Source: an uncultured Candidatus Saccharibacteria bacterium
Lineage (GTDB): Bacteria; Patescibacteriota; Saccharimonadia; Saccharimonadales; JAGQNJ01
Direction: 5' to 3'
DNA length: 64,000 nt
Assembly: GCA_964577565.1 (NCBI GenBank)
Contig: CAZNZL010000001.1
Span: 14,566-78,565 of the forward strand
Below the pieces are notes generated by a model, which ran no database searches, was not told where the DNA came from, and saw nothing but the letters and a program-made list of their open reading frames with translations. The position numbers and the translations under genes are program-made. Shown here piece by piece: positions 40,368-44,748 of the stretch. Numbering within the stretch: position 1 is the stretch's first letter; each line of letters starts with the position of its first letter.

Positions 40368-40916
40368 TTAAGCACGCATGTGATTGCGGCTGTGTGCATC
40401 AGAATGGCGCCGTAGCCGTGGTTCTATATCTACCATGACCCAATCATGGTCTTGTAGCTCGCCATCTTCCCTTGCCTGTCCGAATATAAACTGCTCATTT
40501 TTAAGATCTATAAGCATGCCGTTATGATTTCGGTACCGAAAAATACCAAAGCGCACATGAAATGGTAGGTGTTTGGGTCTAACATCTTTAACGAGGGCTA
40601 CTCGAGCAGCCAGAATGCGGCCCTCGGGCATCAGCGAGGGGTCATGATAGGGAGCAATATGAGGTCGATCTAACACCGGATAGAGCCCAAACTCGTGCTC
40701 GACAACTTTCGCGCCACAATAGTGGCGTACCTTATCAAATTCTTCTGCGGCAATACGTAGGCGCTCAGCAAGACTCACGTGTGGGTCAGCAACCGTTTGT
40801 ATGCGCCGCAATATACTTTCTTGATCTAAATCACCAACTTCTTTTAATTGTGGCTTGTGTAAGTAAATATGCTCTTCAGGATCAAACTCTGGCAAATCCA
40901 GCCCGTAAAATTTCAT
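40368..40916 (-). CDS. hypothetical protein, paralog A of an unrecognised family
   Basis: 182 aa. It shares GxxPxFxP at the N-terminus, CGAxVVxHxxGL in the middle and VDIEP near the C-terminus with the gene immediately upstream. The ATG lies 1 nt after that gene's stop (TGAAATG). Confidence 0.6.
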   Translation of the reverse strand: MKFYGLDLPEFDPEEHIYLHKPQLKEVGDLDQESILRRIQTVADPHVSLAERLRIAAEEFDKVRHYCGAKVVEHEFGLYPVLDRPHIAPYHDPSLMPEGRILAARVALVKDVRPKHLPFHVRFGIFRYRNHNGMLIDLKNEQFIFGQAREDGELQDHDWVMVDIEPRLRRHSDAHSRNHMRA

Positions 40917-40917
40917 T

Positions 40918-41502
40918 TCAGAAACCCCCGCCTTGCTTTTGGCGAAACACAGGCTCGATATCTACTAAAAACAGAGTAGGGTCAGTTTGGTCAGGATTAT
41001 TTGTATTACACCCATACATAAATTGAAACGGTTTCATATCATAAAGGTGGCTCCTGCGTATACGGTTCAAGGGGCGGTTGTAGCGTGCCAAACCTTCATG
41101 AACCTGTTCTTGTATACTCATTGGCAAACTCGCTGAAGAATCAATGCATCTAGGTACCGTAGCACCATCGATATAGTCTACTTTTGCAACCAGTCTTAAA
41201 CCGACATAATTGTTCCAAGGTAGTTTTGGGTACGTAGAACTGGCCAATCCCCAGGTGTGGGGTACAACTTCTGCGCCACACAAGTCTGCGCATTTTTGTA
41301 GTTCTTTGTCAGTAGTAGCGAGCGTGTGCTGAAGTGATTTTAATGAAAAATACGGCGGATAGACATCTATATCACGTACGAATTGCTTTGGTACTGATTC
41401 AGGACTTGATACCGTAGTACTCAGCTCTGCTGCAAGACACCGGCTTAATACCCTCGCATCGCCTGGTTCAAACCCGGGTATAGCACCGAGGCTCTTAACA
41501 AT
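40918..41502 (-). CDS. hypothetical protein, paralog B of the same family, with no canonical start codon
   Basis: The frame is open from 41529 down to the stop at 40918. It aligns with paralog A from about codon position 41499 onward (KSLGAIPGFEPGD vs KFYGLDLPEFDPEE). The first ATG, GTG or TTG in frame is the TTG at 41283. An ATT at 41502-41500 overlaps the upstream TAA. Confidence 0.45.
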   Translation of the reverse strand: MVKSLGAIPGFEPGDARVLSRCLAAELSTTVSSPESVPKQFVRDIDVYPPYFSLKSLQHTLATTDKELQKCADLCGAEVVPHTWGLASSTYPKLPWNNYVGLRLVAKVDYIDGATVPRCIDSSASLPMSIQEQVHEGLARYNRPLNRIRRSHLYDMKPFQFMYGCNTNNPDQTDPTLFLVDIEPVFRQKQGGGF

Positions 41503-42542
41503 TAGTCCTCGGCGAGGGCGTAGGTGGCTTTAGCAACGCGCTTAAATTGCTTTTTGCCTTGTAGGTTCAATAAAATCGTCGTTTCTTTAACGTAACGGGT
41601 TTTAAGTACGTTCTTAACAATCTCGTCACGGTGCAGTGGTTCACCTGCCTTTTTCAAGATGTCGGCAATAACGTCAGATACGGTGCCCTTTTTGTAACCC
41701 CATTCTTTCAGGGCGTAAATGCCTCGCCCTACGAGCACAAAGCGATCGTCTTTGATGAGCTCGTTGTGAATGGCTTGCGTCGTGACATCTTTACGCTTAA
41801 AACTAGAGGCTTTAATTTTTTTGGCAATGTCACTAAAGTGCATTTGCTTGCCGTTTTCTTTCAAAATAACGTAAATTTTGTCGCGAATGTTTTTAGGGTT
41901 AACGGTTGGCCACTTGGTAAGACCCCACACGCCGTTTAAGTGTGCCAGTTGTTTTGACAGGCTTGCTAAGGCCTCTGTCTTAGCCGCTTCGGCTTCGTTC
42001 ATGGCTTTGGCTACGTCTTCAATTGCTGAAGGCTTGCCAATCTCTTTAATGGCCTTAACAACCTTATCAACTTGTTGTGTTACTGCTTTATTGTCGCGAT
42101 ATGTCTTTTTAACAGCTACACCTTGGTGATAAAAGTCGTTTTCATCTACGGTAACAAGCTCAGGGCACAGCGCACATAAAAAAGCTACCCTTGCCTGGTT
42201 AACCTTGCTATCGTCTCCTGTCAGTTCTTTTGATAAAACACTAATTCGTTTGGCTTGGCCGGTTTTTTGTAGCATTTCAGTGACCGTTGCCTGTACCTCT
42301 TTTACATGAGGGACACTCCCCTGCTCTGCCTGGTTTTTAAGACGAGTGATAATAGCTTTTTCTAGCTGACGGACGCGCTCACGGGTAATGCCTAATAGTT
42401 CACCAATTTGCTCGAGCGTTTCTTTGCGGTCAAAAAGACCATAGCGCCTTGATACAATCTCGCGTTCACGCTCTTTCTCGATGGTTGCGAGTATGTCTTT
42501 GGTAATTTGTTCCACTGGTAACGTGTTAGTTTCGGTAGTCAT
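41502..42542 (-). CDS. sigma-70 region 4-like plus HARE-HTH domain DNA-binding protein
   Basis: The N-terminal part reads RYGLFDRKETLEQIGELLGITRERVRQLEKAIITRLK, a sigma region 4 HTH. The C-terminal part reads MHFSDIAKKIK...IHNELIKDDRFVLVGRGIYALKEWGY, a HARE-HTH-like pattern as in the RNA polymerase delta subunit N-domain. Confidence 0.65.
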   Translation of the reverse strand: MTTETNTLPVEQITKDILATIEKEREREIVSRRYGLFDRKETLEQIGELLGITRERVRQLEKAIITRLKNQAEQGSVPHVKEVQATVTEMLQKTGQAKRISVLSKELTGDDSKVNQARVAFLCALCPELVTVDENDFYHQGVAVKKTYRDNKAVTQQVDKVVKAIKEIGKPSAIEDVAKAMNEAEAAKTEALASLSKQLAHLNGVWGLTKWPTVNPKNIRDKIYVILKENGKQMHFSDIAKKIKASSFKRKDVTTQAIHNELIKDDRFVLVGRGIYALKEWGYKKGTVSDVIADILKKAGEPLHRDEIVKNVLKTRYVKETTILLNLQGKKQFKRVAKATYALAED

Positions 42543-42779: not shown

Positions 42780-43238
42780 TTAATTTTCAGAATCGATTAT
42801 CTGAAATTCACCATTCTTGCCATAACTATTTGGTTCGAAGAATTCGGGGTACATTTCGTCTTTGACACCTTTTATCTCTCGAGCTCGCTGAATGGCTGCT
42901 CGCATCTGTTCTAATTCTTTGGCTTTTTCATCTATTTCTGCTAACTCTGGCCGTAATTTACGATCCGACATACCCCTTAAATCATCTGGAATCCCATACT
43001 CTTCACCCGTAAAAGTTGTAGTATCCATATCCCTTGTTGACGGAGAAGGAATACCCGCGCGATGCAACGCATCCTGTCCAAACTGTTGTTCATAAGTTGC
43101 ATCCCCATCAGGACCTATATCAAAGCCTTTTCCAGATGCTGTTAGTTTAGGAACATTATGTAGGCCCCTTACTTCAGGCTCTTGGTGAGGGTCAATGAGT
43201 TCTCCTCTTGCTTCAAAATCATCATCAAATCCTGTCAT
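42780..43238 (-). CDS. hypothetical acidic protein
   Basis: 152 aa, rich in D/E, with no TM helix and no family recognised. TATAAA on the minus strand (43251-43246) lies 7 nt upstream of the ATG, a leaderless-type geometry. Confidence 0.5.
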   Translation of the reverse strand: MTGFDDDFEARGELIDPHQEPEVRGLHNVPKLTASGKGFDIGPDGDATYEQQFGQDALHRAGIPSPSTRDMDTTTFTGEEYGIPDDLRGMSDRKLRPELAEIDEKAKELEQMRAAIQRAREIKGVKDEMYPEFFEPNSYGKNGEFQIIDSEN

Positions 43239-43938
43239 ATGAAAATTTATACCAGAAAAATAGAATAATTCAATACCTTTCTTTCGCCTGCATTAGAACG
43301 GGCTTCGACAATCTCTTTCTCGTATTACATAGAAATATTCCAATTTTCTCAGTAAAAAACCCAGCCTTGTTCTCTTTTGTTTCGGCAAATTTATTCCCAT
43401 TTTCTGTCCGGCCGGACAAGTTTTGTGAATACTTATTCTTTCACTCGCTTGCTAACACAAGCTATCAGCGACCCACTTTTCTCAGTAGCAAGAAAAGATG
43501 GGGCAAAAGTGCCACTGGCAACTGAAAAACAATGATGTTCACTCACTTGTCTGGCATCCGGATTCTACGTAACGACCCGCCAGCTGGCGGGGTCGCCCGT
43601 CAGTAGCCGGGTGAGCCTCGAATCACGGTATACCAGACTACGTTCATTCTTTTCAGTTTTTCAGAGCCAGATAAGCTTAAAGCAATATGTGGCTTGGTTT
43701 GCTCCTGGTACAAGGTGCGTCAAAAATACAATTATAGTCTGAGGACTTCCCGGCAGTTGCCGGGCGACCGTTAGGGAGTTGTCCGAAGCATTGTATTTAT
43801 TGACAAGCACCTTGCCAAGAGTAAACCATTGCCACGAGGGGTTTTGCCTTCTTTTGACCCAGCTGCAAAAGGAGGTCGCCTACAGCTCACGGAGTGAGCG
43901 GGGCGAAATACTTATGATAATTCAAATACTTTTATTGT

Positions 43939-43993
43939 CTTCGCTTTCGTCCTTTTGGACTCATCAGCGTAAGTACACACTTACGGAGCGAAG
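43939..43993 (-). ncRNA. hammerhead self-cleaving ribozyme, type III topology
   Basis: The minus strand reads CUUCGCU-C-CGUAAG-UGUGUA-CUUACG-CUGAUGA-GUCC-AAAA-GGAC-GAA-AGCGAAG. The complete conserved core is present (CUGAUGA, GAA, the A15.1-U16.1 pair, C17). Stem I has 6 bp, stem II has 4 bp starting with a G-C pair, and the open stem III has 7 bp. Confidence 0.85.
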
Positions 43994-44094
43994 ATGACAA
44001 GAAGACAATAGTTTAGGAACAGAAGAAGTGGCAATGAGAGCCAAACGTCTGAGAAAACCCCAAACTACTCTCTGCTTGCCACCGTCGCTGGTGA

Positions 44095-44568
44095 TCAGTC
44101 GCCGCCAATGAACGAGTAGTCCGCGTCCATCACGCCGCCCTGACGAGTCATCTCGTTCCGGCAGATGGCGATGATGGCAGAAGCCATCCACTCGGCGATC
44201 ATCTCATCAAAGACAGCTTGGACGCCGCTGAAAGCGACGATCAGCCCGTCACGGATGACGCTGCCGCCCCACTTGACGTCGCCGTCTTGCAGCAGGTGCG
44301 GTGCACGCTGCTGAACCTCGCGGCTCGACATCTTCGTTCGCTTGGAGAGCTGCGCCTTGGCATGGGCGATGCGCTTGTACTTGTCGTCATCGCGCGTGCC
44401 ATTGGTCTCGATGGTCTCCGTGAAGAGGACACTGCCATCGCGAGGGTGGAGCACCACGATGGTTCCGGCTAGCTTGTTGGTCACGCCGTCATTACGAGCG
44501 GCATTGACCCCTTGGCGAACCATACACCATGCAAGGTCGCAGATTTCCTCGGAAATTCCTCGGTACAT
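44095..44568 (-). CDS. GC-rich ORF, possible GlcG/HbpS-like (DUF336) protein
   Basis: WGGSVIRDGLIVAFSGVQAVFDEMIAEW resembles the DUF336 core GGxPxxxDGxxIGAxGVSG..xxDxxxA. Hand counts of three 60-nt lines give 38, 32 and 40 G+C, against 25 of 60 in a topA line. Both strands carry long shadow ORFs, as expected for high GC. I prefer the ATG at 44568 (MYRGISEE) over the TTG at 44592. Confidence 0.45.
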   Translation of the reverse strand: MYRGISEEICDLAWCMVRQGVNAARNDGVTNKLAGTIVVLHPRDGSVLFTETIETNGTRDDDKYKRIAHAKAQLSKRTKMSSREVQQRAPHLLQDGDVKWGGSVIRDGLIVAFSGVQAVFDEMIAEWMASAIIAICRNEMTRQGGVMDADYSFIGGD

Positions 44569-44718
44569 GCTTGTCTCATCTCTGTGACTCAACTGTGTTA
44601 ACAGTGAGACAAAAAGCTTAAAAGTTAAGCCCTTTATCTCACCGCTAACAATAAACTATGTCTGCTTGTCAAATAACAGGGGTGGAATAGATATAATTAC
44701 TCAACACCCTATACTTAT

Positions 44719-44748
44719 ATTATAGCATAGATAGTAGTTAAATGTCAA
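44719..44748 (-). promoter_or_regulatory. sigma-70 promoter on the minus strand (TTGACA, 18 nt spacer, TATAAT, with TGC before the -10) upstream of the GC-rich ORF
   Basis: The minus strand reads TTGACAtttaactactatctatgcTATAAT. Confidence 0.55.

Follow-up and report, generated by a model that had tools for sequence, protein, structure and literature searches.

A hammerhead ribozyme conserved behind an HbpS-like gene of Saccharibacteria and its probable role at the 3' end of a closed messenger RNA

Introduction

The DNA examined here (the window) is a stretch of 64,000 nucleotides (nt) from an uncultured Candidatus Saccharibacteria bacterium (contig CAZNZL010000001.1 of assembly GCA_964577565.1), and our subject is a type III hammerhead ribozyme on its minus strand, located behind the stop codon of a GC-rich open reading frame (ORF). 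The ribozyme was first proposed from the nucleotide sequence alone (hereafter the original prediction), and we followed this proposal up by computation, mainly through comparison with related loci. The conserved unit is the gene together with its two untranslated regions (UTRs), and it comprises a promoter, a structured leader, the ORF, a 3' arm complementary to the leader and the hammerhead (Table 1).

Thousands of genomic hammerheads are known, and outside viroids and retroelements their purpose is unexplained. Bacterial and prophage hammerheads numbering in the hundreds were described in 2011, with a proposed role in the processing of long transcripts (Perreault et al. 2011, PMC3088659). 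[quoted passage not shown]

Results

The hammerhead of the window

Read on the minus strand, the segment 43993-43939 agrees element by element with the original prediction. The catalytic core (C3 U4 G5 A6 N7 G8 A9 and G12 A13 A14) is complete, and stems I, II and III measure 6-7, 4 and 7-8 base pairs (bp), the first two being closed by loops and the third open, which is the type III topology; stem I may alternatively be read as 7 bp with a GUGU loop. The minimum-energy structure of the 74-nt segment has the hammerhead shape (z = -3.9). Cleavage is predicted between 43986 and 43985, exactly where it had been placed at first, and the distance of about 100 nt announced between the GC-rich ORF and the ribozyme is also right: from the stop codon of the ORF (44568-44095, same strand), 101 nt lead to the start of the ribozyme and 109 nt to the cleavage site. 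A descriptor of our own, covering the type I, II and III topologies, found this single hammerhead in the whole 64-kb window, and R1, a covariance model built from eight hammerhead copies, gives no second one. As a control, the window was shuffled 300 times with its dinucleotides preserved and searched with a looser type III descriptor (stems of 4, 3 and 4 bp or more), which yielded 0.013 matches per window, none of them equal to the observed 7/4/8 bp.

Two additional pairings were rejected. The 4-bp extension of stem III (UUGU/ACAA), which belonged to the original prediction, is not conserved among relatives: UUGU sits in a conserved CUUGUCA that is engaged in pairing elsewhere, and the 3' flank of the ribozyme is unrelated across loci. 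The idea that the conserved CUUGUCAU pairs with the core of the ribozyme was dismissed because, judged by eye, such a pairing shows no covariation with N7.

Conservation and covariation in related loci

We examined 29 genomic and 22 metagenomic loci encoding relatives of the ORF protein. In 18 of them (19 with the window), a hammerhead lies on the same strand 35-315 nt past the stop codon, with R1 scores of 57-81 bits (L001, L003, L004, L005, L007, L008, L010, L012, L029, L150, L151, L153, L156, L158, L159, L162, L164 and L171); neither the descriptor nor R1 found one next to the homologues from Rhodococcus and Mycolicibacterium. The original prediction had suggested looking for compensatory changes in related genomes, and an ungapped alignment of 53 columns and 8 sequences contains them in 13 of the 17 pairs and in all three stems. 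The cells of the stems are paired at 98.5%, versus 32-41% in slid controls, and not one of 500 shuffles did as well; two subgroups differ in register by 1 nt, and this shift accounts for some of the signal in stem III. The pairs U16.1-A15.1 (UA in columns 6/48) and G10.1-C11.1 (GC in columns 33/44) are invariant in the eight sequences, which is exactly what the hammerhead consensus requires. Apart from N7 (U, C or A), the core is invariant in the eight aligned homologues, and every copy has C, U or A as H17, never G.

The proteins encoded at the hammerhead loci are only 48-76% identical, and the retention of the ribozyme with compensatory changes over such distances argues for purifying selection. 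We conclude that, on comparative grounds, the element of the window qualifies as a real hammerhead under selection, of which self-cleavage is the predicted activity. The full cassette (leader, ORF, 3' arm and hammerhead) also occurs on a contig labelled as an Actinomycetota metagenome-assembled genome (L008, JAMDEO010000059.1), whose flanks have 57% GC and which is either mis-binned or derived from a lineage of higher GC.

An architecture shared with viral contigs

A search of viral contigs with a pattern made of the core and a 4-bp stem II with NAAA loop gave at least 91 classified ribozyme sites. Among the matches listed, 76 of the 91 have the architecture of the window (type III, 7-bp stem I, UGNGUR cap), R1 scores reach 73 bits and several hammerheads frequently share one contig. 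The window ribozyme belongs, then, to an architectural class abundant in phage contigs. The original prediction, which stated no expectation of such an element in a reduced-genome bacterium, overstated the surprise, in view both of this class and of the published bacterial and prophage hammerheads. About 76 viral copies keep the loops UGNGUR and NAAA, as do those of Saccharibacteria, and this conservation hints at a possible tertiary contact between the loops of stems I and II, on which fast cleavage at physiological Mg2+ depends in hammerheads. In the contigs from IMG/VR (L030-L109), 2-5 hammerheads per locus are common (e.g., L085, L052, L067 and L043), the cleavage triplet is mostly GUC, and about 15 type I sites with the same stem II occur among the matches listed.

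A helix between the leader and the 3' arm

The stretch directly upstream of the ribozyme, the 3' arm, is complementary to an arm of the leader. A fixed-register alignment of 12 distinct loci gives a helix of 14 pairs, which is paired at 92.8% (28-50% when the register is slid), shows compensatory changes in half of its pairs (7/14) and has no equal in 500 shuffles. Duplexes of cognate arms have a mean energy of -28.6 kcal/mol versus -23.1 kcal/mol for non-cognate ones, a gain of 5.5 kcal/mol. Examples from four relatives are given in Table 1. A further pairing suggested by RNAduplex, in which GGGUG of the leader would meet the terminal 5 nt of the cleaved mRNA, is GU-rich and inconsistent in register, and stays a tentative one.

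Locus L151 (1-2700) has three GC-rich ORFs in a row in an AT-rich background. The first (442-876) encodes an unrelated protein and is equipped with a separate promoter and leader arm, a 3' arm complementary to the latter and a hammerhead (1001-1053); the product of the second (1197-1640) is lipoprotein-like (MKKLAAAIAVVAVVAGCGG...); the third is the HbpS-like gene, with a hammerhead at 2552-2604.

A competing hairpin in the 3' UTR

The 3' arm is also the 3' strand of a local hairpin, which arises from a local copy of the leader arm in the 3' UTR. The base of this hairpin begins 5 nt past the stop codon, and its 3' strand consists of the 3' arm plus the 5' strand of stem III, stopping 1-3 nt before the cleavage site; its basal pairs AGCGA/UCGCU thus occupy the strand which the hammerhead needs for stem III. 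The consensus has 26 pairs, 9 of them with compensatory changes, and covariation is strongest at the base, where the hairpin overlaps stem III. The hairpin is found in the window and in L012, L001, L004, L010, L007, L156 and L158, as well as in L159 by near-identical sequence. In the window, the state with the local hairpin (-100.1 kcal/mol) and the state with the leader duplex (-100.2 kcal/mol) are isoenergetic, and GGUGGCAAG has another potential partner in AUUGCCACU (44035-44027), a segment inside the hairpin. We had considered the resemblance between the leader arm and the decoy strand of the 3' UTR as a flanking direct repeat that would mark a mobile cassette; this was abandoned, as the two are alike because both complement the same 3' arm.

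Ribozyme or terminator

The minus strand of the window has no terminator-like site, with a GC-rich hairpin and a U-run behind it, from the stop codon to the next gene (44095 to 43239), and no strong terminator stands between stop codon and ribozyme in any of the 19 hammerhead loci. Conversely, several relatives have an intrinsic terminator in place of the ribozyme. L154 (~836-930) keeps the 3' arm and its complementarity to the leader, and the arm is followed by GAGACAUCAGUCUC and a run of seven U; L155 (~1078-1160) has arms that are wholly different and yet complementary to each other (GUUCUGAUCA and UGAUCAGAAC), followed by a strong terminator; in L011/L166 and L014, terminators lie near the stop codon.

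The gene and its neighbours

The ORF encodes a protein with 87 detectable homologues, mostly from Saccharibacteria. Of 26 family members, 18 have a PF03928 match with E <= 0.1 (best E-value 3e-6), the window protein itself reaching 17.5 bits where the Pfam cut-off is 25. Its predicted structure has a mean confidence (predicted local distance difference test, pLDDT) of 92.5 and matches HbpS, ORFY, EfgA, PduO-C and NahX with probability 1.0 and template-modelling (TM) scores of 0.53-0.64; a sequence search of the PDB gave no match, and the resemblance came from the fold search. The product is a putative divergent protein of the HbpS/GlcG/DUF336 domain type.

The GC content at third codon positions (GC3) of the ORF is 0.76, which is 4.6 standard deviations (SD) above the mean of 59 window genes (0.43, SD 0.07), the runner-up having 0.53. 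Values of 0.74-0.90 recur in most Saccharibacteria homologues (L001-L010, L150-L162), between flanks of about 45% GC. The anomaly is codon-level, specific to the gene and conserved; recent transfer does not explain it, which speaks for selection, possibly acting on the level of expression or on the stability of the mRNA. That this actinobacterial-like GC3 reflects expression linked to a high-GC host of the epibionts seems to us very unlikely.

Elsewhere, 41502-42542 on the minus strand encodes a protein of 346 amino acids that unites Sigma-70 region 4 with HARE-HTH, an unusual pairing, and the neighbouring ORFs 40368-41283 and 42780-43238 have no Pfam match.

Promoter and leader

The promoter matches the sigma-70 consensus at 12 of 12 positions and has an extended -10 element; its motif TGCTATAAT is seen again in relatives. 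The leader of the window, which we call type A, contains a single-stranded segment UUUGACAAGYAGA common to relatives and a conserved CAGUUGAGU that likewise recurs in them. In other relatives (type B), the part of the leader nearest the start codon matches the Rfam motif RAGATH-10 (RF03147, gathering score 41.2), the closing helix of which (CCUCAUC with GAUGAGG) surrounds the Shine-Dalgarno sequence; two of the matches in Table 1 exceed the gathering score and two fall just under it. The window leader has no RAGATH-10 match at E <= 1 and differs from these leaders in its long hairpin, but it shares with them the upstream arm and P1. RAGATH stands for RNAs Associated with Genes Associated with Twister and Hammerhead ribozymes, and the presence of RAGATH-10 in leaders of the same gene indicates that this family is one of the ribozyme-associated gene sets behind the name of the motif.

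Table 1. Features of the window and of the related loci
Feature	Position	Strand	Details
Consensus sigma-70 promoter	44719..44748	minus	TTGACA, 18-nt spacer, TG-n-TATAAT
Structured 5' leader (type A)	44569..44712	minus	elements shared with relatives
P1 hairpin	~44709-44678	minus	with GUUGAG
Leader 5' arm	44652..44671	minus	UGACAAGCAGACAUAGUUUA; complements the 3' arm ~640 nt downstream
Long P2 hairpin	44648-44598	minus	22 pairs, 13 compensatory
Conserved leader segment	44595-44584	minus	CAGUUGAGUCAC
ORF, 157 amino acids, predicted HbpS/GlcG/DUF336-type fold	44095..44568	minus	GC 0.60, GC3 0.76
Local 3' UTR hairpin, ~35 bp	43987..44089	minus	5' strand 44089-44058, 3' strand 44017-43987
3' arm	43995..44015	minus	UAAACUAUUGUCUUCUUGUCA; ends 9 nt before the cleavage site; complements the leader 5' arm
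Type III hammerhead ribozyme (predicted)	43939..43993	minus	sequence, shuffles, covariation, covariance model R1 (78.8 bits)
Stem III 5' strand	43993-43987	minus	CUUCGCU
C17, cleavage-site nucleotide	43986	minus	
Stem I hairpin	43985-43968	minus	CGUAAG-UGUGUA-CUUACG (CGUAAGUGUGUACUUACG)
Core	43967-43961	minus	CUGAUGA
Stem II hairpin	43960-43949	minus	GUCC-AAAA-GGAC (GUCCAAAAGGAC)
Core	43948-43946	minus	GAA
Stem III 3' strand	43945-43939	minus	AGCGAAG
RAGATH-10 leader	L153 1915-1994		52.2 bits
RAGATH-10 leader	L006 2912-2993		47.0 bits
RAGATH-10 leader	L162 1888-1966		just under gathering score
RAGATH-10 leader	L151 1928-1985		just under gathering score
Complementary arms	L003		leader arm GACAAGUAUUGAG, 3' arm CUCAAUACUUGUC
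Complementary arms	L151		leader arm UGAUAAGUAGAAAG, 3' arm CUUUCUACUUAUCA
Complementary arms	L156		leader arm UGACAUGUAGACA, 3' arm UGUCUACAUGUCA
Complementary arms	L162		leader arm UUAACAAGUAGGCA, 3' arm UGCCUGCUUGUUA

Discussion

A ribozyme as the probable maker of an mRNA end

In our opinion, the ribozyme probably serves, by its predicted cleavage, to form the 3' end of a closed and stabilised mRNA in a single-gene unit. Transcription would start at the consensus promoter and proceed through the leader, the HbpS-like ORF with its very high GC3 and the 3' UTR, after which the sequence presents no intrinsic terminator. The hammerhead would fold as soon as its 3' strand is made and, according to hammerhead chemistry, would cleave after C17. 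With a type III cut, only 7-8 nt of the ribozyme should stay on the mRNA, while its body would depart with the downstream RNA, and the mRNA would be left with a 3' end at a fixed place, bearing a 2',3'-cyclic phosphate. The last ~30 nt of the cleaved mRNA would then be held in a helix, for which covariation supports two pairings, the order of events being our own suggestion. The first option is the conserved duplex of 14-20 bp with the leader arm, which would close the mRNA end to end; the second, at loci of the window type, is the local hairpin of ~35 bp, whose base would swallow the 5' strand of stem III. Either helix could displace the ribozyme body, prevent religation and make the cut irreversible, and it might keep ribonucleases away from the 3' end and perhaps also from the 5' region. 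The expected outcome is a long-lived and highly expressed message, to which the promoter and the GC3-rich coding region would contribute. Because of the end-forming cut and the helix that captures its product, the ribozyme would act as terminator and stabiliser at once, and in some relatives a true intrinsic terminator stands in its place. Circularisation of the mRNA by ligation was also considered and rejected, as there is a single ribozyme, the 5' end is that of a primary transcript and the Rfam scan found no known ribozyme in the window leader.

Several points weigh against this proposal. The self-cleavage activity is itself deduced from conservation, and the leader length of ~145 nt depends on a predicted transcription start (~44712) placed from the promoter. 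In the uncleaved precursor, the fold in which the hairpin base covers stem III is preferred to the one in which the hammerhead is enforced (-60.4 versus -56.9 kcal/mol, tertiary contacts being ignored in both), a preference of the model that could mean a slow or gated cleavage rather than a constitutive one. The complementarity between ribozyme and terminator is incomplete: neither a hammerhead nor a terminator was seen in L013, L028, L161, L167 and L168, and L003/L150, L007, L010 and L153 have a terminator-like hairpin past the ribozyme. L152 (~2620-2650) retains the 3' arm (AUGUCUGCUUGUCAU) as well as the 5' strand of stem III (AUUCGCUUU) but lacks the ribozyme body; this locus could be a deletion derivative. 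That a 2',3'-cyclic phosphate and a closing helix stabilise an mRNA is general knowledge, which we extend to this locus by analogy.

The score obtained with Rfam belongs to the same side of the balance. Hammerhead_3 (RF00008) gives the window 29.2 bits for a gathering score of 48.5, in a local match to model positions 7-48 that covers stems I and II and the core, without stem III. At the gathering threshold, the scan of the whole window returned no hammerhead and a sole match, a transfer RNA; permissive scans added the sub-threshold Hammerhead_3 and evident noise (e.g., small nucleolar RNA and microRNA families). The original prediction had named the absence of a hit above this threshold as a ground for refutation, and no such hit was obtained. 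We nevertheless override this result, because the comparative evidence (conservation and covariation) speaks for the element. The relatives themselves score 28.5-40.3 bits, and the RF00008 consensus has a longer stem II loop, where the window sequence aligns with gaps; as a ground for refutation the threshold, which is a curated cut-off and no structural requirement, is too strict for this hammerhead subclass.

Gated cleavage as a less likely alternative

Since three exclusive partners (the 3' strand of the ribozyme, the decoy and the leader arm) are available for the 5' strand of stem III and the 3' arm, the locus might work as a gated switch, an alternative we hold to be possible and yet on the unlikely side. 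Its trigger might be, with equally modest chances, a sensor in the leader, whether of the RAGATH-10 type or of type A, or a terminating ribosome that opens the base of the hairpin; the consequence, no less tentative, would be that cleavage and the fate of the mRNA are regulated and not constitutive. The energies fit such a scheme, the hairpin and duplex states being isoenergetic and the precursor preferring a non-hammerhead fold by 3.5 kcal/mol, but differences of a few kcal/mol lie within prediction error, and the calculation ignores tertiary contacts and co-transcriptional folding. The overlap between hairpin base and stem III is both conserved and covarying, and the decoy strand has its internal alternative partner at 44035-44027; on the other hand, L003, L005 and L008 keep the ribozyme without the decoy hairpin, and L154 and L155 manage with a plain terminator. 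The position of the Shine-Dalgarno sequence inside the closing helix of RAGATH-10 is reminiscent of riboswitch expression platforms, and regulated cleavage has been raised for bacterial and phage hammerheads by Perreault et al. (PMC3088659); against this, the scheme has no known ligand or factor. A combination of this idea with the end-forming role, in which leader, decoy strand and ribozyme compete for one 3' strand of a closed-loop mRNA, strikes us as rather unlikely, and so does its corollary that a RAGATH-10-type sensor or the ribosome traffic at the stop codon times the cut and the lock.

A relic of mobile DNA as an improbable alternative

It appears improbable that phage-derived or horizontally transferred DNA brought the hammerhead in and that it has been retained with no role for the host gene. 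Such an origin would agree with the abundance of the same architecture in viral contigs, often with several copies in each among the matches listed, with the foreign-looking composition of the ORF and with the differing genomic neighbourhoods of the cassette. Homologues of the ORF protein exist in Actinomycetota, including Rhodococcus and Mycolicibacterium, and cultivated Saccharibacteria are reported to grow on host Actinobacteria (PMC10633639). These Actinomycetota homologues have no ribozyme. The combined pattern of 3' arm and ribozyme had 0 matches in 2.9 million viral contigs, the window has no second ribozyme, and Pfam detected no integrase or phage domain in ten neighbouring proteins. 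Compensatory retention across proteins of 48-76% identity bespeaks purifying selection, and despite deep divergence the GC3 has not drifted to the genome average.

The downstream RNA

The original prediction interpreted the ribozyme as separating the mRNA from a structured RNA of about 700 nt (43239-43935). On this model, the processing of a bicistronic or longer transcript would release the downstream RNA or endow it with a 5'-OH end, a function that we regard as quite improbable. The 697-nt stretch has no long ORF and is indeed unusually self-complementary, no terminator separates it from the ribozyme, and processing of polycistronic transcripts is the classical proposal for prophage hammerheads (PMC3088659). 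Its folding beyond shuffles is not strand-specific, however, being even stronger on the plus strand (z = -11.0) than on the minus strand (z = -8.2), and the stretch is unique to this genome, without similarity in any of ~50 related loci, while the ribozyme and the 3' UTR are conserved. Nucleotide similarity between the window and its relatives is confined to 43932-44100, i.e., the 3' UTR and the ribozyme; in L005, L008, L003 and L012, a convergent protein gene starts directly past the ribozyme, and the genes downstream vary by locus (serS-like, nusA-like, nrdR-like and others). Moreover, a type III cut should leave the ribozyme body on the downstream fragment, the opposite of a clean 5' processing. 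Rfam recognises no family in the stretch, with the exception of a weak group-II-D1D4-3 match (20.8 bits, 43366-43462, minus strand), and tblastn gave no sign that it is a decayed copy of the relatives' downstream genes. The lack of homology and of an Rfam family and the self-complementarity of both strands led us to reject it as the partner of the ribozyme. An imperfect 16-nt direct repeat with 81% identity bounds the stretch (43265-43280 and 43917-43932) and could be the trace of an insertion or a coincidence, and a promoter-like site is located at 43818-43790 on the minus strand.

Finally, a chance resemblance or non-functional motif, which the score under the Rfam gathering threshold might suggest, is effectively refuted by a shuffle expectation far below 0.01 per window and by the maintenance of the element in 18 further loci, where each of the three stems covaries and the core does not vary.

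Comparison with known systems

The hammerhead of the window has the same core as the type III hammerheads of bacteria, prophages and IMG/VR contigs, the same stem I of 6-7 bp with UGNGUR cap and the same 4-bp stem II with NAAA loop, and like phage and bacterial hammerheads, which are thought to process mRNAs, it lies between or after genes. It differs from the viral copies in being chromosomal, with no sign of a prophage in the ten neighbouring proteins scanned, and in its arrangement, each single-gene unit having one ribozyme, invariably on the 3' side of a single gene family. Unlike in viral hammerheads, the 5' strand of stem III in Saccharibacteria abuts and partly overlaps the helices of the leader arm or the decoy, and the cleavage triplet is mostly CUC, UUC or UUA where viral copies typically have GUC. 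Viroid, satellite and retrozyme hammerheads share the type III topology and the core, but there, paired or tandem copies excise unit-length RNAs which are then circularised, whereas the window has a single copy, the 5' end of a primary transcript and no repeat structure.

A hammerhead also resides in the 3' UTR of rodent Clec2 genes, and ribozymes have been engineered to define the ends of transcripts. Twister ribozymes, for their part, have been placed in the 3' UTRs of bacterial reporters (cited in PMC6765202; PMC5052635). In all these cases, as predicted here, a ribozyme behind the stop codon strips the 3' RNA and sets the 3' end of the mRNA. In reporters and in mammals, expression generally falls upon cleavage through the loss of the terminator hairpin or of the poly(A) tail; by contrast, the cleaved end in our locus would fall into a conserved helix, and a cut end built to enter such a helix argues for stabilisation. 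To our knowledge, a natural interchange between ribozyme and intrinsic terminator, as in L154 and L155, has not been described previously. Pairing between the 5' and 3' UTRs of one mRNA is known in bacteria from icaR of S. aureus and hbs of B. subtilis, where it affects stability or translation. The long-range pairing of leader and 3' UTR within one mRNA is common to these systems and ours; icaR and hbs have no ribozyme, whereas here the 3' partner ends 6-10 nt from a cleavage site and, at some loci, has a competing decoy.

Significance

Our literature search retrieved no paper that joins hammerheads with Saccharibacteria, apart from one irrelevant co-occurrence, and none that describes a covarying 5'-3' UTR helix combined with a stem III decoy, a RAGATH-10-type leader and terminator substitutes. 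In itself, the hammerhead is ordinary for bacteria and phages, and its occurrence in Saccharibacteria is new to the literature searched but unsurprising. What makes the locus interesting is the helix between leader and 3' UTR, the competing hairpin and the gene-specific codon anomaly, three features that the original prediction had missed.

The locus bears directly on the open question of the function of bacterial hammerheads (PMC6765202). It provides a comparative case in which one gene family carries one ribozyme at its 3' end, with a covarying helix between the cut end and the leader and with natural variants that have a terminator, and it gives the vague idea of mRNA processing the form of concrete experiments on how the 3' end arises and how stable the mRNA is. 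It also ties the orphan Rfam motif RAGATH-10 to a specific gene, a transcript architecture and a 3' hammerhead, and adds an RNA-level regulatory device to the Saccharibacteria, whose gene regulation is almost unexplored. Should the design stabilise the mRNA, it would constitute a natural template for ribozyme-terminated expression cassettes. If the closed loop with gated cleavage were true, it would give a chromosomal bacterial hammerhead and a RAGATH motif their first physiological role, and would explain why certain genes attract self-cleaving ribozymes.

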